In this document: one piece after another, positions 9,723-25,958 of the stretch | How the letters are laid out: each line of letters starts with the position of its first letter | How positions within the stretch are numbered: position 1 is the stretch's first letter | Assembly: GCA_963845085.1 (NCBI GenBank) | Contig: CAWJQI010000005.1 | Location: forward strand, 905,608-969,607 | Direction: 5' to 3' | Source of the DNA: Candidatus Fermentibacterota bacterium | GTDB taxonomy: Bacteria; Fermentibacterota; Fermentibacteria; Fermentibacterales; JCC-6 | Length of the DNA stretch: 64,000 bases | Position numbers and translations under genes: made by a program | Notes under the pieces: model-generated | What the model was told of the DNA's origin: nothing | Seen by the model: only the letters and a program-made list of their open reading frames with translations | The model's database searches: none

Positions 9723-10928
9723 TCAGTGGCGGATCCAACCGTTCCTTTCCGCCTGCAGCATCGCCTCCCCAACCACGAAGAAACTCCCGGTGACGATCAT
9801 GCGTCCGTTCCCGGAATGCTGCCTGCACATGGAAAAAGCGCCTTCGATTGTGTCGCAGGGCGTGCAGTCGACTCCGGACGCTTTGAAGGCCTCGGCAAGC
9901 TCGGCGGCCGGCAGCATTCTCTCGTTGAGCGGGGTGACAGCGAAAACCGGGCTGACCGATCCTGAAAGCATTTCGACCATCTGCTGCCACGGTTTGTCGG
10001 AGAGAAACCCTATCACGGCGGGAACCGGCTTGTCCCAGCCGCTGATGAAACCAAGAAGGGCTTCCATGGATTCAGGGTTGTGCGCGACGTCGAACAGAAC
10101 CAGGGGAGGGCCCTCCCTGAGGTCAAGCCGGCCCGGCCACGAAAGACCATCGCGGCAAAGATTGTCGTACACGGTCCCGACGCTGATCATGCGCTTCGGG
10201 AAGACCTCGGTTGCCGCTGCAAGTGCAAGCCCGCCGTTGCTTTTCTGATGGGGACCGGGAAGTGGCGCCCTGTCGACCCTGATCGGAAAGATCCGGCGCA
10301 GCTCCATCCCTTCCACCGCTTCCTGAATCACAGCCTCAACGTCCGGTGTCTGCGCGGCCGCAACGAGCAGTGTTCCCCTGTCGGCCATGGCCACCTTCTC
10401 GGCTGCGATCAGTGCCCGGGTGGCGCCAAGAATCCTGCTGTGCTCGATCTGAACACCGGTGAAAACCGTTGCCTCACCGCCGAAAACACGCGTTGCATCA
10501 AGCCTGCCGCCCAGTCCGGCCTCTGCAATCACCCATTCCGCGCCCTTTTCGGCGAAGTACCAGGCTGCAAGCGCGGTGGTTATCTCGAAAAACGTGGCGG
10601 AATACTTCTGTATCAGCTGACGCTTGTCGGTGATGAATCTTGCCGCGTCCTCCTCGGAAATCCAGCGGTCATCAAGATTCACGCGCTCCCTGTAATTCAA
10701 CAGGTGCGGAGACGTGGTATGCCCGACCCGAAGCCCAAGGCCGCGGCCCAGGGCCGCGAGAACCGCAGTTGTGCTTCCCTTGCCGTTGGTTCCGACGACG
10801 TGCACGGTTCTGAAGGCTTCCTGGGGCCTGCCCAGCGCGTCCATCAGGGCACGCATCCTGTCGAGATTGTATTTCATCCCCAGTCGTCTTCTGTTGAAGA
10901 CCCAGTTCTCAGCCGTTGAGTAGTTCAT
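9723..10928 (-). CDS. folC: bifunctional folylpolyglutamate synthase / dihydrofolate synthase
   Basis: Mur-ligase P-loop VHVVGTNGKGST, ~400-aa length, ATGA overlap with the upstream gene. Confidence 0.9.
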   Translation of the reverse strand: MNYSTAENWVFNRRRLGMKYNLDRMRALMDALGRPQEAFRTVHVVGTNGKGSTTAVLAALGRGLGLRVGHTTSPHLLNYRERVNLDDRWISEEDAARFITDKRQLIQKYSATFFEITTALAAWYFAEKGAEWVIAEAGLGGRLDATRVFGGEATVFTGVQIEHSRILGATRALIAAEKVAMADRGTLLVAAAQTPDVEAVIQEAVEGMELRRIFPIRVDRAPLPGPHQKSNGGLALAAATEVFPKRMISVGTVYDNLCRDGLSWPGRLDLREGPPLVLFDVAHNPESMEALLGFISGWDKPVPAVIGFLSDKPWQQMVEMLSGSVSPVFAVTPLNERMLPAAELAEAFKASGVDCTPCDTIEGAFSMCRQHSGNGRMIVTGSFFVVGEAMLQAERNGWIRH

Positions 10929-12226
10929 TTCCCCAGTTCCCTCACCAGCTCCTGCAAGAAGCTTCTCTGCCGGGCCGACACCGTGTCCTGTGCCCTGAGG
11001 ACCTCGGAATGACGTACAAAATCACCCTCCGCAACTTCATTGGTAACCAGGGCAACCCCAAGAACCTCGCAACCCTGTGACGCAAGAGCCATAGATTCCT
11101 GTACCGTTGACATGGACACGGCGGACACGCCGGACTCCGCCAGATAACCCACCTCGAACTGGCTCTCATATGCGGGACCCGACACGCAGCAGAACACCCC
11201 CTCCCGCACAGGGGCACCCAATGATAACCCAATCTCCACGGCCCTGGCAGCAAGACGGCGCGAATATATTGCGCCTCCAACTGCACGATGGGGTGGTTCG
11301 GGAATGCACCCGGAGCAGTTCACATGATCTGTGATGACCATGGCGTCGCCGGTCGTCAGATCCGGGCTGACGGCCCCCGATGATGTTGTAAGAAGCCAGG
11401 AGCCGACCCCGAGGGAGGCCAGCGCAGCCGGAAGGACAGCGGTCTCAATGCCGTCAAAGCCCTGGTAGTGATGCCTGCGGCCCAAAAGATAAACCGTGTC
11501 GCCCTTCCTGTTCACAAGCAGCTTCCCGTCGTGCCCCTCGACCGCAGCGGCGCCTGCTCCGGGTATGCTCCCGTAGGGAATCGCGAGTCCGGGCTCATCT
11601 GCTGCAGCAAGCCATCCCAATCCTGATCCGAGCACGACCCCCTTTCTGGGGATCCTTCCCTTCAGCAGTTTTCTCAGCTCCAGTGCGACCCCGGCGGCAG
11701 TAGGCACGGCCGGGAGATCCCTGACCATCACCAGCGCCGCCTCTCCATCCTCGTAATAGCGGCTGCGGATCCCCTCCGTGTAAAAACCCATCCTCCCGTA
11801 GGCAGCCCTCGCTGAAGGTGAGCCAACCCGGACCTCGAGATACGCCCTGGAACAGCCCCTGATGCTTCCCCAATGCAGCACTGCGGACAAAAGCCCTGAA
11901 GCGATACCTTGCCGACGGTACCCGGGGGCGACGGCAATGGACAGCACATGGACTTCCATTGGTTCATCGAGTGAGGCGGACACGTAGCCGACCAGCTCCC
12001 CTCCCGAAAACGCCCCGAGCGACAGGGAGTCGGGCCACCTGCCAAGAACGCCCCTGAGCGTTGCGGCGCTCCAGCAGTCATCGGGGAAACAGGCTTTCTC
12101 AAGTGCCACGACCTGGAGAAGATGCTCCCTGCCGATCCTTCTTGTCTCAGGGACCAAGAAATCCCGCCTTCTGCATGAAACCCCTGAGATAAAGGGGTTC
12201 CGGATTCCTGTCGAATCCTTCGGCAT
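10925..12226 (-). CDS. fusion protein: RimI-type GNAT acetyltransferase (N) + purine nucleoside phosphorylase, PunA/MTAP type (C)
   Basis: The N-terminal half has the GNAT motif VLSIAVAPGYRRQGIASGLL. The C-terminal half has GSGLG, GRRHHYQG and VSMSTVQE (trimeric PNP family). The start is uncertain: the longest ORF overlaps the tsaB end, and a TTG at the tsaB stop is also possible. Confidence 0.8.
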   Translation of the reverse strand: MPKDSTGIRNPFISGVSCRRRDFLVPETRRIGREHLLQVVALEKACFPDDCWSAATLRGVLGRWPDSLSLGAFSGGELVGYVSASLDEPMEVHVLSIAVAPGYRRQGIASGLLSAVLHWGSIRGCSRAYLEVRVGSPSARAAYGRMGFYTEGIRSRYYEDGEAALVMVRDLPAVPTAAGVALELRKLLKGRIPRKGVVLGSGLGWLAAADEPGLAIPYGSIPGAGAAAVEGHDGKLLVNRKGDTVYLLGRRHHYQGFDGIETAVLPAALASLGVGSWLLTTSSGAVSPDLTTGDAMVITDHVNCSGCIPEPPHRAVGGAIYSRRLAARAVEIGLSLGAPVREGVFCCVSGPAYESQFEVGYLAESGVSAVSMSTVQESMALASQGCEVLGVALVTNEVAEGDFVRHSEVLRAQDTVSARQRSFLQELVRELGK

Positions 12227-12818: not shown

Positions 12819-13227
12819 CCTCTCTCACCGAAGGGTCATCAATGCAGCGCAGACTCACATGGATACCCGGAAGCCTGGGAAGATCTGCGAGCCTGTCCGC
12901 CCATTCAACTATCACCACCGCCTGCGAATCGAGGATTTCGTCGAAGCCCAGCATGGAAAGCTCAACGGAGGTGCCGGAAAGACGGTAAAGGTCCATATGG
13001 TGTATCTCCATGGATGGGAGAACGTAAACCGCATCAAGGATGAAGGAGGGGCTCGGTATGGCTCCCTCCACGCCCAGGGTCCGGATGATCGCCCTGGCGA
13101 GAGTTGTCTTGCCCGAGCCCAGATCACCGATCAGGTACACTCTCCCCCCGGGTGCAAGGTTCCCTGCGATTTCCCTGCCGAGATCAATAAGGGCACTCTC
13201 GCCAAGCTCGAAACGGCCTGTTCTCAC
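12787..13227 (-). CDS. tsaE: tRNA t6A37 biosynthesis ATPase TsaE
   Basis: P-loop GDLGSGKTTLAR. The GTG at 13227 overlaps the porX-like stop (GTGA). An alternative ATG at 13257 would overlap it by 34 nt. Confidence 0.85.
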   Translation of the reverse strand: MRTGRFELGESALIDLGREIAGNLAPGGRVYLIGDLGSGKTTLARAIIRTLGVEGAIPSPSFILDAVYVLPSMEIHHMDLYRLSGTSVELSMLGFDEILDSQAVVIVEWADRLADLPRLPGIHVSLRCIDDPSVREVEIARHLARD

Positions 13228-14771
13228 GTGATCCTTCTCGAGGTGAGCACATCGCATGGAACTATCATTTCGTCAAGAGAGATCCCGCCATGCTGGAAGG
13301 AACCCCTGAAATTGTACATGTCCTCCCTGGCAACATGCTCATGAAACAGCAGATAATCGCTTCTCGCGAGCACGTACGATTTCCTGGGATTGTCATCGGG
13401 AAGCCCCCAGGATGCGGGCTGCCTGACAACCAGCGACTGCCTGGGATCTCCTGACAGGGCCATTCCGAACCTGTACCTCACGCTGCTGGACATGCCCCTG
13501 GCCCCGCGCACCCACGCGATCCGCCCGGCCTGAACGCTGCCATGATCGCTTGTCACGATCACGGTCGCGCCCCTTGCGCTAAGGGTAAGAAGCATTTCCC
13601 GAAGGAATGATCCCCTGAACCATGATTCGGCGAGGGCGCGAAAGCTCTTCACATCCGGCGCCAGATCACGGATGAGGTCAAGCTCGCTTCGTCCGTGCGT
13701 GAGGTGGTCGATGTAGTTCACCACAAGGGCGAAAAAGCCGTTCTTTATGAAGTGCGAGAGACCCTTTCGGATGTTGTCGCCCTCGCGCTTGTTTGACGCC
13801 TTGAGGTAGACCGCGTTATCGGCGCCGCTCCATCCAAGCCTCTTCAGAGCGTCCACGAGGAATTTCGGCTCGTTTCTGTTCAGCCCGGGCGCTCCGTACT
13901 CCTCGATCCAGTCGTTTCTGTAGAAGCGGCTGATATCCCTGGGAAGGAGCCCGCTGAAAATGGAATTCCTGCTGTAGGGCGTCGCTGAAGGAAGCCCGGT
14001 CACCATGAACCCGGGTTCCCGGTGATACCACTGCTCGATCTCACGCGACATCAAAAGCCACTGGTCGTACCGCATGCAGTCGATGACCATCACCACCAGT
14101 TCCCCCGGACTGTCGAGCCTTGGGAGGACGACCCGTTCCAGAAAATTGTGGGACATCAGAGGGCCGTCATCAGATGCTATCCAGTCCCTGTAGTGATCCT
14201 CGACGAAACGTGAGAAATCCATCTGCAGCTGATCGAGGCCGACACCCTGAAACGTGCCGAAATCGCTGGCGAGATGCCCGCGGGTGCTGATGTCCTTTTC
14301 GATCCAGTTGGAATAAAGGTGAATCCAGTCCGACAGCGTCCGGTCACGGGACAGCCTGAGGGTCTCGGCCTCTTGCATGACCTCCATGGCGGCCTGCTGC
14401 AGTTTCAGCTTGCCGGAGGTCAGAAGTTTCTTCACCACGAGAAGGATCTGGCTCGGGTTGACCGGCTTGGTGAGAAAGTCGGCAACTGTTCCGGTCAGAG
14501 CCCGATCCATCAGCTCCTCTTCCTCGCTCTGGGTGACCATGACTATCGGCAGCTCCCTGTAGCTCCTGCGGATCTCGCTGACCGTCTCAAGGCCGTCCAT
14601 GCCGACCATCATCTGGTCAAGAAGCACAAGGTCGACCCTTCTGCTTCTGAGTATCTCGAGGGCGTCCCTGCCGCTTTCGGCGGTGTAGACAGTGTACCCC
14701 CTCTTCTCCAGAAAACGGATGTGCGACTGAAGATGGCTGATCTCGTCGTCCACCCAGAGTACCTTCAGCAA
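13224..14771 (-). CDS. porX: PorX-like response regulator: CheY receiver + PglZ/alkaline-phosphatase-superfamily domain
   Basis: Receiver motifs (VLWVDDE, DLVLLDQMMVGMDG). The C-terminal PglZ-type core has VMVIDCMRYDQW, IDHLTHG and TSDHGS. 515 aa. The TTG start overlaps the kinase stop. Confidence 0.85.
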   Translation of the reverse strand: MLKVLWVDDEISHLQSHIRFLEKRGYTVYTAESGRDALEILRSRRVDLVLLDQMMVGMDGLETVSEIRRSYRELPIVMVTQSEEEELMDRALTGTVADFLTKPVNPSQILLVVKKLLTSGKLKLQQAAMEVMQEAETLRLSRDRTLSDWIHLYSNWIEKDISTRGHLASDFGTFQGVGLDQLQMDFSRFVEDHYRDWIASDDGPLMSHNFLERVVLPRLDSPGELVVMVIDCMRYDQWLLMSREIEQWYHREPGFMVTGLPSATPYSRNSIFSGLLPRDISRFYRNDWIEEYGAPGLNRNEPKFLVDALKRLGWSGADNAVYLKASNKREGDNIRKGLSHFIKNGFFALVVNYIDHLTHGRSELDLIRDLAPDVKSFRALAESWFRGSFLREMLLTLSARGATVIVTSDHGSVQAGRIAWVRGARGMSSSVRYRFGMALSGDPRQSLVVRQPASWGLPDDNPRKSYVLARSDYLLFHEHVAREDMYNFRGSFQHGGISLDEMIVPCDVLTSRRIT

Positions 14772-16144
14772 TTCTTCATCTCCTCGCGGCTGACGGGAAT
14801 GATGATGGAAAACGTGGAGCCCTTTCCGGGAACGCTTGCGAGAAGCTGTATCGTTCCGCCGTGGTATTCCTCGATTATCCGTCTGGACAGGGGCAGCCCG
14901 AGCCCCCAGCCGCCGCGGCGGGTCGAGAAGCCGGGTTTGAAAACCTTGTCCTGCTCCCGGGACGGAATGCCCCTGCCGTTGTCGCTGACCTGTATCTCGA
15001 CTATCGACCTGCTCTCATCCGGGTAGTCGCACACCACTTCCACCCTGCCCCGCTCCTCGCCTGCCGCACATGCAGCAACCGCGTTCTTGATAAGGTTTTC
15101 GAGAACCCACCCGAGAAGAACGGAGTTCCCCATCACAACGGCATCGACCATGCTGCCGGCCTCAACAGACACGCCGCCGACAAGCCCCGGCCTCTGCGAG
15201 AAGTACGATACGGTCTCCATGATAACCCCTGATACCTGAACGGGTTCCAGCCTCGGCTTCCTGCCCACGTGCGCGTACCTCTGCGTTATCTGCTCGAGTC
15301 GTTCAACATCCGCACGCATGGCCCTCAGGGCTTCCGCAGCCTCGGGATCGTTCTCAAGGGAGCGGTTCTCCGTCATCAGCTCCAGCCACCCCATCAGCGA
15401 TGACAGCGGGGTGCTGATCTGATGGGCGGTCTCCCGGGCGAAGCCCACCCACGACATCTCCCTTTCGTGTTTTCTCTCCCCCCTCATGAAGAGCAGCATC
15501 AGCCCCCCGATGAGGATCACGAATCCGAGTTCGAGCACCGGCATCCATGCGATCTCGCGGAATATCGGATCTGTGCCGTAATGGAGGTGTCCGAGCTCGG
15601 TTCCGCCCGGACCAGAGATCGGAATGGGCCTGTTGACCTCGTCGAGTGCCGCAATCCTCGACTTGTACACAATCAGCGTATCATCAGGGATGCCCTCGTC
15701 AACGGGGCGGCCGTCGACAACCTGCGGAAATCCCGTGTTATCCGTGAAAATAATTGAATAGGGCAGCCTGTGTACGAGATCGGAGTACAGCCGCCGGGCC
15801 ATTGCCTGAACTTCCCGCCTCTGCTCCACAGTCGTTTCGGACGTGACGACGAACTGGGTAATCCTTCGGCAGTCCGGACAATAACTGGAGATGTGCCTGT
15901 CCTCGGGAATGGTTTCAAGCGGGAACGATGCGCCGCACTCAGTGCATACCGACAGACCCTCCCTGCCTGCGATGAAGCTCAGGGGGTACTGTATTCCCGC
16001 CCAGAACCAGGCGATGGTTTCGTTCGCGATGCGGTTCGACCTTCGCAGCCTCTCCACGAAACTGTGGGTGTACCAGACGAGCAGCCACGACACCAGGGTG
16101 GCGATCAGGATGATCAGAAGCTTTCTTCTGAGAGAGAATGTCAT
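14765..16144 (-). CDS. sensor histidine kinase (PorY-like partner of the adjacent regulator)
   Basis: ORF 14765..16231. The ATG at 16144 gives TM1. The HisKA H-box is HQISTPLSSLMGW, and HATPase_c has DNGRGIP and GWGLGL. A Cys4 motif (CTEC...CPDC) lies between the two TM segments. Confidence 0.85.
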   Translation of the reverse strand: MTFSLRRKLLIILIATLVSWLLVWYTHSFVERLRRSNRIANETIAWFWAGIQYPLSFIAGREGLSVCTECGASFPLETIPEDRHISSYCPDCRRITQFVVTSETTVEQRREVQAMARRLYSDLVHRLPYSIIFTDNTGFPQVVDGRPVDEGIPDDTLIVYKSRIAALDEVNRPIPISGPGGTELGHLHYGTDPIFREIAWMPVLELGFVILIGGLMLLFMRGERKHEREMSWVGFARETAHQISTPLSSLMGWLELMTENRSLENDPEAAEALRAMRADVERLEQITQRYAHVGRKPRLEPVQVSGVIMETVSYFSQRPGLVGGVSVEAGSMVDAVVMGNSVLLGWVLENLIKNAVAACAAGEERGRVEVVCDYPDESRSIVEIQVSDNGRGIPSREQDKVFKPGFSTRRGGWGLGLPLSRRIIEEYHGGTIQLLASVPGKGSTFSIIIPVSREEMKNC

Positions 16145-16395
16145 CTTACCCCCCGGTCGGTTGACACGCCGGAACGGTCTTTCCGATGAACGGAAAAACG
16201 CGCCGGCACCCGAAGCAGCACGAACCGCCATAATCGCTCAAGCACGGCCCTGTGTCAAACAGCCTGCCCGTCCAGACGGTTTTTGTAGCGGAACAGCCCG
16301 AACACAACCCCGGTCTGGACATCCCGCCTCTCCGGGAATAGACTAACCGCTCCGTGGCGTGAACATACACAAGCAAGGACCCTTGGGGGTTACAG

Positions 16396-18291
16396 ATGCC
16401 TGCAGGAAAAGGACGATTCGGCGGTATTGCGCTTGCAGTCGCCATGCTTGTCCTGTTCGTGCTCTCCGACACTGCTCAGGCCAGAGCGGGGGGCGGACAG
16501 AGCTACGGCGGCGGAAGCGGCGGCGGCGGGGACGGTGGAGGCGACGGGCTCGGTTTCCTTGTCTACTTTCTTGTCAGGCTTTGCATCGAACAGCCCTGCA
16601 TAGGGATACCCCTTACCATCGCCATCATCGTGGGGCTAGCCATTTACAGCAGGCAACGCAAAAAAATGCAGGAAAAGTACATAGCACGTTCTTTCACCGC
16701 CAGGAGAGAGTCTGCAGCCGCAAAAGGTGCCGCCGACCTCGATGCCCTCAAGAACGCTGATCCCGCTTTCACCGAAACCCGGTTCACCGGGATGGCAGCC
16801 ACCGCATTCGCATCGGTTCAGAAAGCCTGGAGCAGCCAGGACCTCTCGGCAGTCACCTCGTACATAAGCGACGGCGTCAGGGAGAGGTTCAACCTTCAGT
16901 TCGACATGCAGCGGGCTATGGGCTACAGAAACTCCATGGAGAACCTGGAGGTCCTGGGCGTGCGGCTTGTGGGTGCGCATGCCGCCAAGGGATTCCAGAC
17001 GGTGCATGCCGAGATTCATGCAAAGGCCTTGGACTGCGACGTATCGATACAAAACGGCAGGAAGCTTCGGACAAACACCGACAGCGATTTCTTCGAATAC
17101 TGGACCTTCATGCGAAAATCCGGGGCGAAAACACCCGAAAAAGGCGGTCTTGTTCAGGGATTCTGCCCGAACTGCGGGGCTTCGCTCTCCGTAAGCAACG
17201 CCGGCAAGTGCGAGTACTGCGGGGCCCATATCACCAGCGGCACATACGACTGGATTCTCGTCGAGATCACTCAGGAAAGCGAATGGAAACCTGCGTCCGC
17301 ACCCGATGGAATTCCAGGGTATTCCGAAATGAAGGCGAAAGACCCGGGTTTCATGACCCAGCCTCTTGAAGACACTGTTTCGGTTGTCTTCTGGCGCTAT
17401 GTGAAGAGCTATTTCGAGGGCAGGACCGATGCGGCAGTCAAGGTTGCCTCTCCTGAGTTCATCCCGTCCCTGGAGAGGAACATCGCCCAGACTGTCGAGG
17501 GAGAGTGGCACCTCTACTTCCACGATGCTGCTGTCGGTTCTGTCGAAATTCTCGACATCGTGCCGGGGCAGGACAAGGACCGGGTCAGGGCGCTGGTGAA
17601 GTGGTCGGCCTGGAACCGTTTCCGAAACGCCGCCGGGCAGACGAAGGGTGCCGGGGACCGCAGCATCAGACCACAGGTCTTTACGCTCGCACGCCTTCCA
17701 GAGGTCAGAACCAGGACTGAAAACGACTTCCACTCCGCGCACTGTCCGGGATGCGGAGCACCCTACACCGGCGCCGCAGGAGGCGCCTGCGAGTACTGCG
17801 GCAGGCCCTTGAACGACGGCTCAGGCGCCTGGGTTCTCGAAGACATCTCGGCATTCTCGGCCGGAATGCTCAAACGTGCCCCCGGCAGGGCCGCGGCCCC
17901 AGATCCGGAGATGCTTCTCATGGCAATGGTGGCCGCAATGTTCGCGGACGGGACGGCTGACGGGGATGAACGGCGCCTGCTCGATGATTTTGCCGCCTCG
18001 AGGGGGGTATCGGCGGAGAAGGTATCCGGCATGATCGCTGCGGCTTCCCAGGGGGTCGAGCTTCCCAGGGCGGAGGGCACCGCCGAGGCGAAGGCGGTTC
18101 TTTCCGAAATGGTCGGGATCACCCTTGCGGACGGTTCGATCAGTTCCGGGGAGATGAAGTTCCTCGAGGGTTACACAACAAGCGCAGGCCTCTCCCCGGC
18201 CGATCTGCGGGCCACGATAGCCGGGAAGCGAAGAAGCCTCTACAAGGAAGCCCGAAAGACAGCAGGCGGTACGCGGCCAGGGTCGGCCTGA
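16396..18291 (+). CDS. membrane protein with two Tim44-like domains, each followed by a zinc ribbon, and a C-terminal TerB-like domain
   Basis: Signal/TM segment plus a Gly-rich tract. Two CxxC...CxxC ribbons (CPNCGAS...CEYCGAHI and CPGCGAP...CEYCGRPL). The C-terminus MVAAMFADGTADGDERRLLDDF resembles TerB. Confidence 0.75.
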   Translation: MPAGKGRFGGIALAVAMLVLFVLSDTAQARAGGGQSYGGGSGGGGDGGGDGLGFLVYFLVRLCIEQPCIGIPLTIAIIVGLAIYSRQRKKMQEKYIARSFTARRESAAAKGAADLDALKNADPAFTETRFTGMAATAFASVQKAWSSQDLSAVTSYISDGVRERFNLQFDMQRAMGYRNSMENLEVLGVRLVGAHAAKGFQTVHAEIHAKALDCDVSIQNGRKLRTNTDSDFFEYWTFMRKSGAKTPEKGGLVQGFCPNCGASLSVSNAGKCEYCGAHITSGTYDWILVEITQESEWKPASAPDGIPGYSEMKAKDPGFMTQPLEDTVSVVFWRYVKSYFEGRTDAAVKVASPEFIPSLERNIAQTVEGEWHLYFHDAAVGSVEILDIVPGQDKDRVRALVKWSAWNRFRNAAGQTKGAGDRSIRPQVFTLARLPEVRTRTENDFHSAHCPGCGAPYTGAAGGACEYCGRPLNDGSGAWVLEDISAFSAGMLKRAPGRAAAPDPEMLLMAMVAAMFADGTADGDERRLLDDFAASRGVSAEKVSGMIAAASQGVELPRAEGTAEAKAVLSEMVGITLADGSISSGEMKFLEGYTTSAGLSPADLRATIAGKRRSLYKEARKTAGGTRPGSA

Positions 18292-18298
18292 GGAACCT

Positions 18299-19912
18299 TT
18301 ACGGCCCCAGTGCCCTGAAGTTGTCCGGCGGCAGGCTGTCCACCGCCATGAAACCATCGGGAACCGGACCTGTGAACCTGTAGATGATGGTTCTGCCCGA
18401 ACTGCTTCTCCACGCCTCCGAGAGGAAAGCGGGAGGGTCGATCACAGCCCAGCCGCCTCCGTCGGGAGTTCTCCTCCACCTGCCGGACAGCCACGGTCTG
18501 AGGCCGGGCAGGTCGCTGTCCACCACCACGAAGCCAACCCTGTGCTCTTCGAGGCACGGCCAGAGCAGCATTTCATAATCGTTGGGCCAGGTAAGCGTGG
18601 GTCTGCGGTACACCCAGTGATAAAGCTCCACGTTCGGGTAGGTAACGACCCAGGTGCTTTCAGGGACATTGTCCCTTATCCAGCGTGCCCCCTCCATCGC
18701 CTCGAGTGCCCTGTCCCTGTTGCCGGCAGTGAGGACCTCCGCCACAGGGCGGAACAGCACGAGTGCCGTCACAACCGCCACCGCAGGAACAACTCCCCTC
18801 ACATTCTGGCGCCTGCGGAAGACCCCTGCAGCCCCGAATGCTGCGACAATCGCGTAGACCGGGGCAAGATAGCGCCCGCTGTGCTGATGCAGGGTCAGCG
18901 CCGCCATGAGGGGAACGGCAACCAGGGCCGGCAGGAGCATCTTCCTCCTCATATCACGGTCGCTGAGGCCGAGAATCGCAAATAGAAGGAAAACAGCAAG
19001 GGTCGGCTGTGCGAACGGTTCGCCTCTTCCACAGGAGCCCAGGGCGAAGGGTTCGAGCACACGGCCCGCCCCTTTTACAACAAAGACAGCACACGCCTTC
19101 AGCCCCTGGTTCCTCAGCATGTCGGAAGGGGAGGGAGGCGTATCCCTCACGCTCCAGGCCGACCAGTGGTTCTCATTGAGAACAAACTGGCTGTTCTGGC
19201 TGTAGGTCGGGCTTCCGAACTCCCTCAGGTTTCTCAGGAACCAGGGCAGTGCGCAGACGACGAAAACGGCGGAGAAAAGCAGGGCTTTTAGGATCCTTCG
19301 CCTGCCTCCGCGAAAAAGAATCCACAAACCCATGGAGAATGCAAGCAGGGCGCCCTGAGTCCTGCTCAGATAGGCTGCCCCCGAAACAAGCCCCAGCAGC
19401 ACCGCGCCCCTCCACGAAACCATCCCCTCTCCCGCTGCGGCCAGGGCCAGGAAAACAAGGGTTGTGTACAGAAGCAGGCTGTCGGGCTGGGCGCTGTACC
19501 AGATGAAAGGGGGGTCGAGGGCGAGGAAGGCAAGGGCAAAAAGCGCTCCGCGTCTTCCTACGGCACGGGATGCCCATCCGTAGAACGCAAGAAGGCAGAG
19601 CATGCCCACGGCGATCGAAAGTGCCTGGGCGGGTCTCATGCCCGGCCCCGTAACCCTGAACAGGGCGGATAGCATCAGGGGAAACAATGGCTGCCTGTTG
19701 GCCTCGGGTCTCAGCTGGTCCATGGAGTCGTCGTACAGGGTCCATTTCAGAAAGGTGGTGAATCCGAGGCCGCGGTTGATGTTGTCAGCCAGCAGGATGT
19801 TGGCGGCAATGCCGTCGCCTTCCGGAGCGGGCTGGCGGACGGCGGTCATGATCCTTGCCCCGAGGGCAACGAGGAGAATTGCGGCAATGATCCAGCGGAA
19901 CCTGTTTTCCAT
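18299..19912 (-). CDS. polytopic membrane glycosyltransferase, GT39/GT83 (PMT/ArnT)-like
   Basis: About 12 hydrophobic segments plus a ~130-aa soluble C-terminal domain. The ATG at 19912 is preceded by GGAGGA. Family assignment is from topology and general resemblance. Confidence 0.65.
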   Translation of the reverse strand: MENRFRWIIAAILLVALGARIMTAVRQPAPEGDGIAANILLADNINRGLGFTTFLKWTLYDDSMDQLRPEANRQPLFPLMLSALFRVTGPGMRPAQALSIAVGMLCLLAFYGWASRAVGRRGALFALAFLALDPPFIWYSAQPDSLLLYTTLVFLALAAAGEGMVSWRGAVLLGLVSGAAYLSRTQGALLAFSMGLWILFRGGRRRILKALLFSAVFVVCALPWFLRNLREFGSPTYSQNSQFVLNENHWSAWSVRDTPPSPSDMLRNQGLKACAVFVVKGAGRVLEPFALGSCGRGEPFAQPTLAVFLLFAILGLSDRDMRRKMLLPALVAVPLMAALTLHQHSGRYLAPVYAIVAAFGAAGVFRRRQNVRGVVPAVAVVTALVLFRPVAEVLTAGNRDRALEAMEGARWIRDNVPESTWVVTYPNVELYHWVYRRPTLTWPNDYEMLLWPCLEEHRVGFVVVDSDLPGLRPWLSGRWRRTPDGGGWAVIDPPAFLSEAWRSSSGRTIIYRFTGPVPDGFMAVDSLPPDNFRALGP

Positions 19913-20006
19913 AGATCGTTCCTCCACCTTCGTGCCCTTCCTTCCAGAAGCCAGGGTTGTATTTTACTTCAACACAGCACTCGGAGCCACAACGGAGAGG
20001 TGCGGC

Positions 20007-20780
20007 ATGATCCTGACCGGAGCCACCTGGAATGTTAACTCTGTGAGGGCGCGCCTTCCCCACGTCCTCCGCTGGCTTGCAGCCAACCCCGTCAGCTTTT
20101 TGTGCCTTCAGGAGACAAAGGTCACCGACGACCTCTTTCCCTCGGATGCGTTCGGAGAGCTGGGCTATTCATCCCTCGCCCATGGCCAGAAGACCTACAA
20201 CGGCGTTGCTGTTATCAGCCGGATCGGGTTGGAGGACACCCGGAAGGGGCTGCCCTCGGGGTTTCTGGATGATCAGGCCAGGCTGCTTTCATTTCGCCTG
20301 CAGGGCATCAGGTTCATGAACGCGTACGTCCCCAACGGTGGTGCTGTGGATCTTCCCTCCTTCGAACACAAACTCCGCTGGCTCGAGGAACTGCTGGCGT
20401 TCGCTGCCGGTTTCGATGAGCCGACCATTGTCATAGGGGATTTCAACGTGGCGCCCGGTCCCGATGACACGCATTCGCCGGACATTCAGGACGGCACTGT
20501 GTGTTATCACCCCTTCGAAAGGCAGCGGATCAGAGCATTCCTTGACTCCGGATTCGTGGATGGGTACAGGTTGTTCAACCCGGCGGGAAAGGCATACACA
20601 TGGTGGGATTACCGTGCGGGCGCATTCCGAAGGAACATGGGCATGCGCCTTGACCTTGTGCTGGCCTCAAAAAGCGCGGCTCACCTGATTCGTTCCGTCG
20701 AGGCAGACCCGGCCCCGCGGACGTGGGAAAAGCCATCCGACCATGTGCCGGTGCTTTTCCGGTTCTCGGCTCCGGAATGA
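20007..20780 (+). CDS. xthA: exodeoxyribonuclease III (AP endonuclease, EEP family)
   Basis: The N-terminus MILTGATWNVNSVRARL...LCLQETK and the C-terminal PSDHVPV are typical of Xth. The ATG at 20007 has a GGAGAGG RBS; the longer ORF from 19602 overlaps the divergent gene. Confidence 0.9.
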   Translation: MILTGATWNVNSVRARLPHVLRWLAANPVSFLCLQETKVTDDLFPSDAFGELGYSSLAHGQKTYNGVAVISRIGLEDTRKGLPSGFLDDQARLLSFRLQGIRFMNAYVPNGGAVDLPSFEHKLRWLEELLAFAAGFDEPTIVIGDFNVAPGPDDTHSPDIQDGTVCYHPFERQRIRAFLDSGFVDGYRLFNPAGKAYTWWDYRAGAFRRNMGMRLDLVLASKSAAHLIRSVEADPAPRTWEKPSDHVPVLFRFSAPE

Positions 20781-20824
20781 AGGACGCCCGTCGGGTGTAG
20801 AACGGTTATTCCAAGGAGGTCCTC

Positions 20825-21763
20825 ATGATGCTGATTCTCGCAGTACTGCTTTCAACAACGCTTCCTGACCCATCCACGGCGGATGAGCGGGAGCTTGCAC
20901 CCGTGATCGTTCACGAATGGGGCGTTCTTTCCTGGAGCGGTCCGGACGGATCCTTCTCCGGAGCACCGGGAGCACCGGAAGCACCCGGGACAGTTCCGCA
21001 ACCGGATGAAATGATCCTTCGTGCACCGGTTCTCTACGTTCACGGCCCGGAGTTTACAGGCCGGATCGATGTGCGAACGACCAACGGCGTCCTGACCGCT
21101 CTCTACCCCGAGCCCTCCCTGGTGGACGCTGACAGCGGGTCATGCTCCTGGGATGGCACTTTCGCGTACGAGGCTTTCGAACCATCCGCAAGGGATATGT
21201 CCGCCGCAGTGGAGCGTGGGCTGAGAAGCCCCGATGCCCCGCGCTGGCCCTACCACCTTTGGAGGACGGGGGAAAGCATGACGATAACCACCCCCTGCGC
21301 AACCGAAAGCTTTCTGTACTACGAGACGAGGCCGGAACGGCTTGACTTTCTCCCCCTCATGCCCGGCGCTGATGCAGTGAATGCAGAGTGGGCGGACATT
21401 CCGGCGATCGTTCTGAAAAGGACGGATGACGGTTTCGTCTACTCGGAATGCAATCTCGGTCTGCTCTTCGAGGGTGGCGACCTATCCTTCAGCAGCCTTC
21501 AGCCCGACGAGATCCACGACATTCTGAGGGAGTGGTCGAGGAACATCATCGACATCGAGGAGGTCGACGCCCTCTGGAACACCTGGTCGGACTGGATCTG
21601 CCTTGACCATGCTGATACGGGGGCATACGCCGGGGGACTGGTGCTTTACCTCGTACCTGACGAGCTGCTGGACAAGCTCAGCACCATCGAGGTCTTCCGT
21701 TCCGGCCCGCTGTCCTATCCGTTCCGTGTACACAGGTACATTCTCGCCGCAGTCCCGCTCTGA
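20825..21763 (+). CDS. secreted hypothetical protein, paralogue 1 of HEWGV/ALWNTW family
   Basis: AAGGAGG RBS and a hydrophobic leader. Shares ordered motifs HEWGV, APVLYVHG, FLYYE and ALWNTW with the next two ORFs. Confidence 0.7.
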   Translation: MMLILAVLLSTTLPDPSTADERELAPVIVHEWGVLSWSGPDGSFSGAPGAPEAPGTVPQPDEMILRAPVLYVHGPEFTGRIDVRTTNGVLTALYPEPSLVDADSGSCSWDGTFAYEAFEPSARDMSAAVERGLRSPDAPRWPYHLWRTGESMTITTPCATESFLYYETRPERLDFLPLMPGADAVNAEWADIPAIVLKRTDDGFVYSECNLGLLFEGGDLSFSSLQPDEIHDILREWSRNIIDIEEVDALWNTWSDWICLDHADTGAYAGGLVLYLVPDELLDKLSTIEVFRSGPLSYPFRVHRYILAAVPL

Positions 21764-21775
21764 AAGAGGTTTGAA

Positions 21776-22678
21776 ATGTTTCCACTGCTTCTTCCGTTTC
21801 TTGCGGATACCGTTGTGGCACCCATGGACAACACAACCCTTCTCAGGATCCACGAATGGGGGGTTGTCACCTTTACATCGGTCGGCAGCGAGGTGACCGG
21901 CGTGCCGGGTGACACCTACGGGTACGATCCATTCGGCATGGTGTGCGTCGACGCGCCGGTTGTCTGGTTCCACGGCTCTCCCTTCACAGGCACGTTCACC
22001 GCGACTGCCGGGATGGGCTTCATTTCGACGGCTTACCCGACCCCCTCCGTGCAACTCGAGGGAGATGCGCCTCCTGCCGTATCATGGCATATCGATGGCA
22101 GGCTTCCGGAACCGTACGATGAAGCCCCTGTCCCCTCGGTCCCCGAGGGTACGCCGTTCCAGTGGGCGATGGACTTCTGGCGCGACGTGCCCTGCCACGA
22201 TCTCTACGATGCCGACGGAAACTATCTGGACAGGTTCCTCTACTACGAAACCGCCATTCCCGACGGAATCCACACCAGGATGAACACCGTGGTGGAGGAC
22301 GGCAGGCAGCTCGCAGGGTACTTCTCGCCCGAAGGTCTTCTGATAGCGACGGGCGACGAACCGAGAATATTGCAGCACAACATAATACCTCTTCCGGTCC
22401 TCAGCGATGCCATAAGGCCGCCCCTTGAACGAGACGAAATTCTCGAGAAGATTTGCGACTGGGCGGGAGGCAACCTGAAATCCCAGGAAATCGCCGCCCT
22501 GTGGAACACCTGGGAGCCTTTCTTCAGTGAAAGACCAGCCGGTGAACTTTGGCTGCTCTTCCCTCTGCCGCCGGCCACAGTCGAGGGCATCAGCACGTTA
22601 AGCCTCGCTGTCGAGCAGCCGCTTGACCTCCGTGTTGAATACCACAGGCTATTCCTCGGACTTGTGAGGGTGGAATGA
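21776..22678 (+). CDS. secreted hypothetical protein, paralogue 2 of HEWGV/ALWNTW family
   Basis: Motifs HEWGV, APVVWFHG, FLYYET and ALWNTW. AAAGAGG RBS. Confidence 0.7.
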   Translation: MFPLLLPFLADTVVAPMDNTTLLRIHEWGVVTFTSVGSEVTGVPGDTYGYDPFGMVCVDAPVVWFHGSPFTGTFTATAGMGFISTAYPTPSVQLEGDAPPAVSWHIDGRLPEPYDEAPVPSVPEGTPFQWAMDFWRDVPCHDLYDADGNYLDRFLYYETAIPDGIHTRMNTVVEDGRQLAGYFSPEGLLIATGDEPRILQHNIIPLPVLSDAIRPPLERDEILEKICDWAGGNLKSQEIAALWNTWEPFFSERPAGELWLLFPLPPATVEGISTLSLAVEQPLDLRVEYHRLFLGLVRVE

Positions 22679-23511
22679 TCGTTCCCGCCGTAATCCTGAT
22701 GGCGGGGCTCTCCGTTCACGAATGGGGGGTGGTACTCGTTTCCGAGGGGCAGACCGGATTTGTGTCGGCGCCGGAGGCGGGCATCACCCGCGTCTTCGAT
22801 GTAAAGGCGCCCGTGCTGTACTTTCATGGCGATCCCTGCACGGTGAACGTTCGGGTGACGGTTCCCTCGGGGCTTGTGACACTGGCGCTTCCAGAGCCGG
22901 CTTCCGGGGGAGTGGGATCCGATTCGGTGCATTGGGCGAACCTGTCACTCGTGGATACGGTGGAACGAAATCCATGGCCGGGGATCACCTCATGGGAGTG
23001 GGGTGAAACCTGGTCCGATGTCCAGGCGCTTTCCATCAGAAGGAGCCCCTTCGTAGACAGGTACCTGTTCTACGAATGCTCACTGGTCGGGCCGGGGTTT
23101 CTCCCCTATTTCGTGGATGGGAACAGCCCCGCCGTCGGAAGCGGGTTCGGTGATTTGCCGTGCATCCTTCTGCGCGGAGGAACTGAAGACGCCGAATTCG
23201 CAGAAATGAGCCTCCGGAACCTTGCCGAAGGTGCACCCCCATCGTGGGAGCCTGTAGTAACGGCTTCGCAGGTCAGGATCATTGTCGAATCCTGGGCTGC
23301 GGGTGTTCTCGAGCCTGATGAGTTCAATGCACTCTGGAACACATGGGAAACCACTTTCCTTTTTGGAACAGGCTCTTGCGTACATGTGCTGTACAGCATT
23401 CCCGAAAGCGTCATGAGCGGGGTCGCCCCGATCGAAATCACTTGCGACGACGGGCAGACGGCTGAAGTGAAGAGGTTTCATCTGGCGTTCGTCCCCGCAG
23501 GGAATCCATAG
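22675..23511 (+). CDS. secreted/anchored hypothetical protein, paralogue 3 of HEWGV/ALWNTW family
   Basis: ATGA overlap with paralogue 2. Motifs HEWGV, APVLYFHG, YLFYEC and ALWNTW. Confidence 0.7.
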   Translation: MIVPAVILMAGLSVHEWGVVLVSEGQTGFVSAPEAGITRVFDVKAPVLYFHGDPCTVNVRVTVPSGLVTLALPEPASGGVGSDSVHWANLSLVDTVERNPWPGITSWEWGETWSDVQALSIRRSPFVDRYLFYECSLVGPGFLPYFVDGNSPAVGSGFGDLPCILLRGGTEDAEFAEMSLRNLAEGAPPSWEPVVTASQVRIIVESWAAGVLEPDEFNALWNTWETTFLFGTGSCVHVLYSIPESVMSGVAPIEITCDDGQTAEVKRFHLAFVPAGNP

Positions 23512-24230
23512 TGCCTTCGGGGTTCCTCACCCCGGCACTCGTGATACTCGCAGCGGCCGCCCTGCAGGGGTTTTGTGGTTTCGGATACTCCCTGCTCGCA
23601 ATGCCGATCCTGCTGTTTCTCATGCCTGCATCCACCGCGGTTCCCATCCTCTGCATCACCGGAATAGCACTGAATGCAGTGCTGCTTGGTATCACGAGAA
23701 AAAGCCTGAACCTCAGGGGGTTATTTCCTCTCGCCCTGGCAGGGGTTCTCTTCACCCCCCTGGGTGCCCTGCTCATCCGCGAAATAGATGCGGAGACGGC
23801 AAAAACCGTCATGGGTGTCTGTGTGACACTCCTTTCGGTCACAATGCTTTCCAAACTGCGGGCAGGGGTAAGGAAGACCGCTGCGGGGATGTTCGCAACG
23901 GGCGCGGTCAGCGGGCTGCTGAACGGCTTCTCCACATTCAGCGGACCCCCTGTCGTCCTCATGCTCTCGGGAAGCGGGGACGAAAGGGACGGGATAAGGT
24001 CGAGCCTTGCGGCTTACTTCCTTTTACTGGGCGTGATCGCGGCGGTGTCGTATTCGATGATGGGTGTTCTGACCTCCAGTGCATTGCCGACGATTGCCCT
24101 CACTCTGCCCTTTGCCGTCCTGGGCGGGTCGCTGGGGGCTGTGTTCGCAAGAAGGCCGGGAAACGAGATCCACAGAAGGATCTCACTGGTGGTCATGGCA
24201 TTGCTTGGGCTTCTTTCGGCAGCGGCCTAA
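23511..24230 (+). CDS. TSUP (TauE/SafE) family membrane permease
   Basis: 239 aa with ~7-8 hydrophobic helices. The N-terminus LQGFCGFGYSLLAMPILL is typical of TauE/SafE. The GTG start shares one nt with the paralogue-3 stop. Confidence 0.8.
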   Translation: MPSGFLTPALVILAAAALQGFCGFGYSLLAMPILLFLMPASTAVPILCITGIALNAVLLGITRKSLNLRGLFPLALAGVLFTPLGALLIREIDAETAKTVMGVCVTLLSVTMLSKLRAGVRKTAAGMFATGAVSGLLNGFSTFSGPPVVLMLSGSGDERDGIRSSLAAYFLLLGVIAAVSYSMMGVLTSSALPTIALTLPFAVLGGSLGAVFARRPGNEIHRRISLVVMALLGLLSAAA

Positions 24231-24706
24231 AGAAAGGGTTCGCCGATCCGCCATTCGCCCTGTTGAAGGACCAGTGCAAAGCAGGTCTCGTCGGTTTCCC
24301 CGGAAAGCAGGTCAACCTCGCAGACGACAATTGCCGTGTCGCCCCTCATCCCCTCCATCGAACATGTGATGAGGTTTCTCTCGGGCAACTGCGATACAAG
24401 CACGGGGGCATCGAGGACAACACCCACGAAACCGGTCTCGGTCAGGCAGGCGACATCCTGGCTGCTGTACTGCCTTCCGATCCAGCGGCTGATCTGTTCA
24501 GCGGCGGCAGCAGGATGCAGCCTGGCCATCGTAACCATGGTTGTTAGAGCGGCCTGATTCTCGGTGCTAAGCATTTCATATACCGTTTCGGCATCATATC
24601 TGTACACGGCATCGATAAAGCTCTCCATGAACTGGAGGGGGTCGGCGCATGCCGCCGAAGCCAATGCCAGAACAACCAACGAAAATCTCCTGGGCATTTT
24701 CTGCAT
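24227..24706 (-). CDS. hypothetical lipoprotein
   Basis: ATG start and a lipobox-like LASAAC after a basic N-terminus. I recognise no family. Confidence 0.55.
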   Translation of the reverse strand: MQKMPRRFSLVVLALASAACADPLQFMESFIDAVYRYDAETVYEMLSTENQAALTTMVTMARLHPAAAAEQISRWIGRQYSSQDVACLTETGFVGVVLDAPVLVSQLPERNLITCSMEGMRGDTAIVVCEVDLLSGETDETCFALVLQQGEWRIGEPFL

Positions 24707-25232: not shown

Positions 25233-25958
25233 CTAGAAAGAAGCCTTGATCTCGCCCCAGGTGCTGCGGGTGAGGGAGGTGCCATCCCACATGAACTCAA
25301 GGATGTTCTCCCAGATGGCTACACCCTGGGTTGCATAGGCCGGTGTGAAACCGCTGATAACGCTCTTGCCGTCAACAGCAACGCAGATACCGGCCTGTCC
25401 GGCTGTGGGGGATGATGCCCATCCCGTGACCGGAGTGGCGGCGCCGACTGTGAACCTGGCGTTAAGGATGCCAAGGCCGGGGTCACTCCAGGACCAGTCC
25501 GAGATGCCGGCGCAAATGGGATGAGTGGGGATCCATGCGTAATGGTTGATAACCGGAGCGCCAAAGGTGGTAACAGCGGTTACGCCCATGCTGTTGGCAA
25601 GGGCCATCTGGCCGGACGTTCCGTTCAGCCACTCCCATGTCGAAACGTAGAGACGGCCGCCACCCGTGTAGTAGCTGGAGATGCCTGCCCAGTTGAGCCC
25701 GTCGGAGTCGGCGTACCAGGACTCGATAACGATGATGTCCCAGGAACCGGTTGTGAGCGCATCGTTGAACTGGGTGTACATACCCCCGGGCTGACCGCTT
25801 GCGGGGTACACGTTGCACGAAGGCCAAAGGTTGTCACAGGCCTCGAGAACGGCATCACCGTAACCGCCCGAATAGTCGTAATAAACCAGGATGTTGGTCG
25901 GGTCCTGCGCGATGAGGAGCGCAGATGCGACAAGAATAATGCATGCGAACATTCTCAT
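25233..25958 (-). CDS. secreted hypothetical protein ending in ...LTRSTWGEIKASF
   Basis: ATG with an AGGAGGG RBS and signal peptide MRMFACIILVASALLIAQD. The C-terminal tag is shared with 59498..60325. Confidence 0.7.
   Translation of the reverse strand: MRMFACIILVASALLIAQDPTNILVYYDYSGGYGDAVLEACDNLWPSCNVYPASGQPGGMYTQFNDALTTGSWDIIVIESWYADSDGLNWAGISSYYTGGGRLYVSTWEWLNGTSGQMALANSMGVTAVTTFGAPVINHYAWIPTHPICAGISDWSWSDPGLGILNARFTVGAATPVTGWASSPTAGQAGICVAVDGKSVISGFTPAYATQGVAIWENILEFMWDGTSLTRSTWGEIKASF

Follow-up and report, generated by a model that had tools for sequence, protein, structure and literature searches.

The stretch of DNA analysed here (the window) comprises 64,000 nucleotides (nt) of contig CAWJQI010000005.1 from the genome of Candidatus Fermentibacterota bacterium (GCA_963845085.1). 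It encodes three consecutive genes, P1, P2 and P3, which are followed by a gene for a TauE/SafE (TSUP) permease. The products of the three genes are, on balance, best read as anciently diverged, exported paralogues of a single domain, for which the permease is not a conserved functional partner. We name this exported domain of approximately 270 residues, carried by each of P1–P3, the HEWG domain. The three proteins are likely to belong to a family that is uncatalogued, exported and without a conserved link to TSUP, and any specific mechanism that is assigned to them is rather doubtful.

Three diverged paralogues

P1 (312 amino acids (aa), positions 20825..21763), P2 (300 aa, 21776..22678) and P3 (278 aa, 22675..23511) lie on the plus strand and were delimited using the list of open reading frames (ORFs), alignment and BLASTP, to which a family hidden Markov model (HMM) score of 265 bits for P1 and an AlphaFold2 model for P3 can be added. 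All three pairs match over their full length (BLASTP E-values of 2e-14 for P1/P2, 9e-22 for P1/P3 and 2e-17 for P2/P3), with pairwise identities of 25–27%. The three-way alignment contains 41 invariant columns; the motifs HEWGV, APV..HG, L(Y/F)YE and ALWNTW, together with a mid segment rich in Trp and Pro, are invariant or nearly so. BLASTP and alignment therefore bear out the original prediction, made from the sequence of the window, that three consecutive ORFs encode diverged paralogues with a common ordered set of motifs. The P3 copy of ALWNTW is at 23329–23346 rather than at the predicted 23328–23345, a trivial shift.

Ten columns are invariant across 44 diverse family sequences that include P1–P3. 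These are the His, Glu, Trp and Gly of the first strand, two Pro residues, the Tyr of FLYYE, a Glu and a Trp in the helix with the pattern '...EA.A...TW', and a C-terminal Arg. P1, P2 and P3 each retain all ten. The nearest orthologues of the three proteins are 50–72% identical, and P2, with approximately 72% identity to its nearest relatives, is the most conserved. Searching the window with the family HMM detected no further member besides P1, P2 and P3.

The window has a GC content of approximately 60% and contains many spurious overlapping ORFs, which is the sole argument for supposing that P1–P3 are not genes, or that their similarity is an artefact of the composition of a GC-rich genome. 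The probability of this is negligible: orthologues with intact frames and the invariant motifs occur in approximately 20 genomes at 33–73% identity, profile E-values extend down to 1e-112, and the fold predictions are confident. Orthologues, profile scores and models together refute it.

Gene junctions and transcription unit

P1 is preceded by the ribosome-binding site AAGGAGG (20813..20819, plus strand, read from the sequence), which ends 5 nt ahead of the ATG at 20825. Upstream of P1 by 44 nt, and on the same strand, is xthA (19998..20780), which encodes exodeoxyribonuclease III (NCBIfam TIGR00195 equivalog, 237 bits against a cut-off of 182.6; Pfam Exo_endo_phos, E-value of 3e-31). The TGA stop of P1 (21761–21763) is followed by AAGAGG and then by the ATG of P2 at 21776. 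The P2 stop and P3 start overlap as ATGA at 22675–22678, and the last G of the P3 stop codon, TAG (23509–23511), is the first base of the GTG start of the permease gene at 23511. That gene (23511..24230, plus strand) encodes 239 aa and matches Pfam PF01925 with an E-value of 4.5e-25 and 89.1 bits, against a cut-off of 32.6, over profile positions 3–235 of 237, that is, over its full length. At the level of the sequence the original prediction was accurate: the ORF list confirmed the positions of the four ORFs, reading of the sequence confirmed the strong AAGGAGG site, the ATGA overlap and the base shared by the P3 stop and the permease start, and the full-length Pfam match confirmed the fourth gene as a TauE/SafE permease.

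A terminator scan from xthA to the end of the permease gene detected no convincing plus-strand terminator at any gene junction; the few plus-strand matches were weak and lay within coding sequence. A scan for sigma-70 promoters gave no match, to which little weight is attached since the lineage may use other promoter types. Given the tight junctions and the lack of a convincing terminator between the genes, it is plausible that P1, P2, P3 and the permease gene form one expression unit, as had been proposed. The transcription unit is probably xthA–P1–P2–P3–TSUP, with xthA as its first gene.

Gene order across Fermentibacterota

A scan of one genome per GTDB species returned 39 loci, which were annotated by BLASTP against the proteins of the window, with precomputed Pfam labels for three of them. 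Every named locus belongs to Fermentibacterota (Fermentibacteraceae, Sabulitectum, Aegiribacteria or Hyd24-12). Wherever a Fermentibacterota locus extends far enough upstream, xthA is directly 5' of the P1-type gene. A further neighbour throughout the phylum, as judged by synteny, is a gene for a PMT_2 membrane glycosyltransferase of the GT-C, ArnT/PMT-like type (in the window at 18299..19927 on the minus strand, divergent from xthA; Pfam PF13231, E-value of 3e-12).

Four arrangements are distinguished. The first, found in the window and in six other loci (L001, L005–L008 and L022), runs Tim44-like gene, PMT_2 (minus strand), xthA, P1, P2, P3, TSUP and a lipoprotein gene (minus strand). The second, present in Sabulitectum-type and other genomes (L002, L003/L019, L009, L010, L012, L013 and L015), consists of PMT_2 (minus strand), xthA, P1, P2 and P3 with no TSUP gene; L002 and L003 have a DUF481 gene on the opposite strand after P3. 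Four partial loci (L011, L017, L018 and L021) are placed with this arrangement, as the sequence after P3 (2.7 kb or more) contains no TSUP gene. The third is that of basal lineages (L024, L025, L034, L036 and L042), where xthA is followed by one family gene and PMT_2 is upstream where the sequence allows; in L024 and L042 the single family gene overlaps the xthA stop by 4 nt. The fourth comprises extra loci in the same genomes (L026–L033, L035 and L037–L041), which carry between one and three P2-like genes, usually arranged in tandem. Where ORFs were listed, in five of these loci, the P2-like genes come after bioD, bioA, an oxidoreductase gene and a radical-SAM gene, and before adenosine-deaminase-like genes.

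A neighbour-joining tree of 83 family ORFs contains three orthologous clades, P1, P2 and P3, each of which spans the first two arrangements. The basal single-copy genes fall beside the P1 clade; the P2 clade has the extra arrays as its sister group. Because each of the three clades spans both arrangements, the tandem triplication is old and maintained, as originally predicted, and predates the split between Fermentibacteraceae and Sabulitectum. The position of P1, adjoining xthA, is the ancestral one.

The link to the TSUP permease

The original prediction went further and suggested that the triplet is a heteromeric extracytoplasmic partner of the permease; it would then act as a substrate-binding or gating module of an anion transporter. 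Two observations speak for it: in all seven loci of the first arrangement, P3 and TSUP either overlap or are only a few nt apart, and L023, in which a lipoprotein gene lies 60 nt after P2, lacks both P3 and TSUP. The linkage is, however, confined to these seven loci, which form one subclade. TSUP is absent after P3 in 11 other Fermentibacterota loci, two of which carry the DUF481 gene there instead, and is likewise absent from the basal single-copy lineages. No TauE gene was found among the called or scanned neighbours of the sampled acidobacterial, planctomycete-type, archaeal and other members. Within the subclade itself, the P3 orthologue of L022 (9749–10282) has decayed to 177 aa: approximately the first 125 residues of the domain are gone, 'VLEGG' stands after the leader where VHEWG would be expected, ALWNTW is replaced by SIWPFW, and the invariant Arg has disappeared. 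Directly behind it, the TSUP gene (10258–10995) is intact, with 65% identity. To our knowledge, no TSUP permease uses a periplasmic partner or substrate-binding protein.

Such a module is therefore very unlikely. The 11 loci without TSUP, the decay in L022 and the thousands of family members elsewhere argue that there is probably no obligate partnership between triplet and permease, and that TSUP is a lineage-specific neighbour and an improbable working partner. Singleton homologues unlinked to TSUP genes, which had been named beforehand as an outcome that would refute the model, do exist and in part tell against it. Co-transcription of P3 and TSUP within the subclade is nonetheless likely, judging by the junctions; tight translational coupling to a transporter gene, seen in a single genome, proved no guide to a conserved functional system.

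Size and distribution of the family

Searches of Pfam-A and NCBIfam with P1–P3 returned no family even at E-values of up to 1, and 21 distant members gave only spurious sub-threshold matches to Pfam and NCBIfam (E-values of up to 0.01 to 0.1). Sequence-profile searches of the Protein Data Bank (PDB) with four alignments detected no relative of the core domain; the one match was limited to the C-terminal extension of planctomycete-type members, a HEAT repeat (alphaRep, E-value of 3e-11). The earlier statement that the motif set could not be assigned to any known family thus holds for every curated library that was searched, and a full-text literature search for HEWGV, HEWGT and HEWGTF gave unrelated papers only.

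A word-indexed search with P3 returned 25 proteins, and all named relatives were annotated 'hypothetical' in Candidatus Fermentibacteria or Fermentibacteraceae; one protein is labelled Desulfobacterales, probably through a binning error. The close relatives for which a taxon is named are restricted to Fermentibacterota. The wider family emerges from an exhaustive profile search with a 23-sequence alignment as query, which matched 1245 representatives of 50%-identity clusters at E-values of up to 1e-3, 158 at up to 1e-10 and 62 at up to 1e-30. When distant members were used as seeds, a word-indexed search recovered at least 6576 proteins at E-values of up to 1e-5. The top matches of this search are proteins of approximately 400 aa from Acidobacteriota (Blastocatellia, Pyrinomonadaceae), named 'hypothetical' throughout except for two 'HEAT repeat domain-containing' entries. 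Further named members belong to Planctomycetota, Zixibacteria, Altiarchaeota, Diapherotrites and unclassified archaea, and across the family almost every protein is annotated 'hypothetical'.

Domain architecture varies among the members. Proteins P0306–P0315 (572–574 aa) score twice as high as single-domain members and apparently carry two HEWG domains in tandem; others have C-terminal HEAT repeats, or N-terminal linkers rich in Cys or Thr.

P1–P3 belong to a real, large, widespread and uncatalogued family of proteins that are probably exported to the envelope, and no known kind of protein matches it. Its thousands of members occur in abundant soil, sediment and digester phyla and in DPANN archaea, with no representative in Pfam, NCBIfam or the PDB. 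Many such unnamed families exist, and the HEWG family, which is well delimited, answers no standing question yet. Its sharp invariant set, the confident models and the recurrent position behind ECF (extracytoplasmic function) sigma and anti-sigma genes, described below, make it a concrete candidate for family curation and for initial work on its biochemistry or structure.

N-terminal leaders and export

Where the family occurs in other phyla, HEWG comes immediately after a textbook Sec signal peptide or after a lipobox, as in MKKLLPFLLFSLPAFADLTVHEWGTF and ...LLAFLGGCTENPAEMKAEFEVHEWGV. Export was assessed in 277 family proteins by a heuristic that requires a hydrophobic 9-mer ahead of HEWG with a mean Kyte–Doolittle value of at least 2.0. 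Such a 9-mer is present in 269 of the 277, accompanied by an upstream Lys or Arg in 186, and a lipobox-like motif is present in 63; the median position of the HEWG His is residue 40. The signal peptides of P1-class proteins elsewhere in Fermentibacterota are classical.

A reading of the domain as a histidine-brace copper protein, similar to lytic polysaccharide monooxygenases, was rejected, as the HEWG His is not residue 1 of the mature protein. In members with classical signal peptides, an AxA-type cleavage site, judged by eye, lies approximately 3–12 residues before the His (for example, AFA|DLTVHEWG and AYA|DLEVHEWG), and the His is within β-strand 1 in both structure models.

P2-class orthologues share an odd N-terminus (window 21776–21830), M-[IFL]-P-L-[LM]-F-x-x-L-x-D-T-V-[IV]-A-P. 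This short acidic N-terminus does not resemble a textbook signal peptide and may be a specialised sorting or assembly signal.

Predicted fold

The AlphaFold2 model of P3, computed from the 23-sequence alignment, has a predicted local distance difference test (pLDDT) score of 84 and a predicted template modelling (pTM) score of 0.84, with disorder only at residues 1–9, in the leader, and 25–39. A model of the acidobacterial member P0234 from a separate alignment (pLDDT of 87 and pTM of 0.82) has the same order of strands and helices as P3, plus a C-terminal helical extension.

Foldseek detected no PDB match to the P3 model at E-values of up to 1e-3; eight of its ten best matches were AP-1 μ chains (E-values of 0.015–0.16). 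For P0234 there were five matches at E-values of up to 1e-3, all of them μ-homology domains of clathrin-adaptor or COPI subunits (E-values of 9e-5 to 5.5e-4, probability 0.97–1.0). The superpositions have template modelling (TM) scores of 0.25–0.47 and root mean square deviations (r.m.s.d.) of 9–12 Å; the best target-normalised score is 0.47, and the query-normalised scores are 0.25–0.32. The remaining PDB matches of both models were weak, generic β-sandwiches. Membership of the μ-homology fold was rejected, with TM scores below the threshold of 0.5 for both models, and the profiles A1, A4 and A6 matched no adaptor chain among PDB sequences even at E-values of up to 10. The match is thus a likeness in fold class that provides no evidence for homology or membership.

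A Foldseek search of BFVD gave a single match, an uncharacterised protein of 406 aa (A0A3G4ZNZ8) from Terrestrivirus, a giant-virus metagenome-assembled genome, which superposes on the P3 model with an E-value of 6.6e-6 and an r.m.s.d. of 3.4 Å over 235 columns. This protein probably belongs to the family, and its gene was either taken up from bacteria or placed in that genome by a binning mistake.

Gene neighbourhoods in other phyla

In Acidobacteria (L044–L049) the family gene follows genes for an ECF sigma factor and a zf-HC2/FecR anti-sigma factor on the same strand in six of six loci, which fall on two different synteny backgrounds. A small unannotated gene lies between the anti-sigma gene and the family gene in two of the six, and a small Haem_bd gene (PF14376) follows the family gene in three. 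In the FecR- and Acidobacteria-matching passages of the ECF classification paper (PMC7826278), a HEWG protein is not described.

This arrangement is one ground for regarding the HEWG domain as a periplasmic signalling accessory, a sensor or co-factor that would communicate with FecR-type anti-sigma factors or other envelope sensors; the copies in Fermentibacteria would then be derivatives of such a module. The HEAT repeats at the C-terminus of many members and the peptide-binding μ-homology domains among the top fold matches would be in keeping with such a function. We nevertheless consider it quite unlikely: neither the window nor any other Fermentibacterota locus has an ECF sigma or anti-sigma gene beside the family genes, the archaeal and planctomycete-type contexts examined had no ECF genes, and a gene that follows a sigma/anti-sigma pair may be merely its regulated target.

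A Planctomycetota genome (L052, 5001–8022) has a PMT_2 gene on the same strand, 50 nt downstream of a family gene that is itself divergent from a BatA/VWA gene. A metagenome scan returned 23 loci, where the neighbours include VWA_3 and tetratricopeptide-repeat (TPR) proteins, a GT4 glycosyltransferase, an epimerase and peptidases; no PMT_2 link was found in the approximately 13 planctomycete-type metagenome loci. A general linkage to PMT_2 was accordingly rejected, as it recurs neither there nor in the six acidobacterial loci. In a Diapherotrites archaeon, a member of 736 aa lies near archaeosortase, CarS and SecDF genes, and in an unclassified bacterium a member is divergent from kinase and two-component genes. 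The recurrent theme across the phyla is extracytoplasmic or envelope-associated machinery.

The glycosyltransferase genes raise the question of whether the HEWG domain is an enzyme of envelope glycans or glycoconjugates (a hydrolase, lyase or transferase accessory), with P1–P3 providing three specificities that act with the neighbouring GT-C protein. Its invariant His, Glu, Tyr, Glu and Arg, along with several Trp residues, would suit such an activity; a set of polar and Trp residues of this kind is typical of carbohydrate-active sites. PMT_2 is a neighbour throughout Fermentibacterota and is directly downstream in the Planctomycetota genome, and GT4, NAD-epimerase and Wzy_C genes occur near other members. 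Against this, Foldseek returned no fold of a carbohydrate-active enzyme, only the weak μ-homology and β-sandwich matches. PMT_2 is adjacent in only one of approximately 13 planctomycete-type loci and in none of the six from Acidobacteria, and in Fermentibacterota xthA stands between PMT_2 and P1. An enzyme of this kind is thus an unlikely explanation.

Proposed role of P1–P3

The reading that we favour, exported HEWG-domain paralogues that diverged anciently and do not depend on the permease, can be extended into a conditional outline. P1–P3 would be co-expressed from one tightly coupled operon, probably starting at xthA, to the end of which the TSUP gene would have been added only in a subclade of Fermentibacteraceae. 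Each protein would be synthesised with a leader at its N-terminus and transported to the cell envelope, where it would fold into a two-lobed, β-rich domain whose first strand carries the invariant His-Glu-Trp-Gly and whose helical hairpin carries E...W(N)TW. Because no paralogue has lost any of the invariant residues (H, E, W, G, P, P, Y, E, W and R), each probably has its own intact binding or catalytic site. Their stable 1:1:1 retention suggests either three non-redundant specificities or subunits of one envelope assembly, possibly a single hetero-oligomer.

As to what is bound, the invariant His, Glu, Tyr, Glu, Arg and Trp residues point to a ligand site of a defined kind, and the μ-homology-like fold of the models, together with the HEAT fusions, suggests binding of peptide or protein. 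Neighbours such as PMT_2, GT4 and Wzy_C leave room for a role related to glycans. A more ambitious synthesis, which we regard as a long shot, would unite these elements in an ancient extracytoplasmic superfamily of bacteria and DPANN archaea with a μ-homology-like peptide-binding fold, whose acidobacterial members would be a third, signal-sensing component of ECF/FecR systems and whose P1, P2 and P3 would form a heterotrimeric envelope complex in Fermentibacterota.

Several observations weigh against the favoured reading. Function is deduced only from leaders, conservation and neighbours, with no characterised homologue. The neighbourhoods differ by phylum, and no single partner or pathway emerges from them; the six acidobacterial loci represent only two related synteny types, and the phylum-wide adjacency to xthA, a gene for a cytoplasmic enzyme, has no obvious functional meaning. 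The leaders of P2 and P3 in the window are short, with approximately 10 hydrophobic residues and no basic n-region, and that of P2 is atypical in its conserved acidic 'DTV'. The short hydrophobic leaders of the original prediction are thus real, but those of P2 and P3 are unusually short and lack the basic segment, so that we infer export of these two proteins from the family only.

Other genes of the window

Positions 16396–18291 (plus strand) encode a protein of 631 aa whose N-terminus is Gly-rich and whose C-terminus is TerB/DUF533-like, and which also has a Tim44-like domain and zinc ribbons; its gene is kept beside PMT_2 in many Fermentibacterota loci. The minus strand at 13224–16231 encodes a histidine kinase and then a response regulator fused to a PglZ domain. 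Downstream of the operon, also on the minus strand, are two unannotated genes, for a lipoprotein of 159 aa (24227–24706) and a secreted protein of 241 aa (25233–25958), neither of which has a match in Pfam or NCBIfam. Both genes are conserved in the TSUP-bearing subclade.

Comparison with known systems

Periplasmic substrate-binding proteins of the ATP-binding cassette (ABC), tripartite ATP-independent periplasmic (TRAP) and tripartite tricarboxylate (TTT) transporters are likewise exported and encoded beside a transporter gene. P1–P3 differ from them in having no similarity of sequence or fold to any class of substrate-binding protein and in a transporter linkage that is not conserved. With respect to the TSUP (TauE/SafE) family, PF01925, true membership applies to the fourth gene only, and P1–P3 are unrelated to it. 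The ECF sigma/FecR-type modules provide a second point of comparison: acidobacterial members of the family are encoded directly behind a sigma/anti-sigma pair, whereas the triplet of Fermentibacteria has no such neighbours.

The closest structural likeness is to the C-terminal μ-homology domain of the μ subunits of AP-1/2/3/4 and of δ-COP, which is similarly elongated, β-rich and two-lobed and comprises approximately 250–280 residues. The sequences share 8–10% identity and no profile match, and the HEWG domain, unlike the μ-homology domain, has a helical hairpin. Moreover, μ-homology domains are cytosolic modules of eukaryotic adaptors, whereas the HEWG domain, judging by its leaders, is an exported one.

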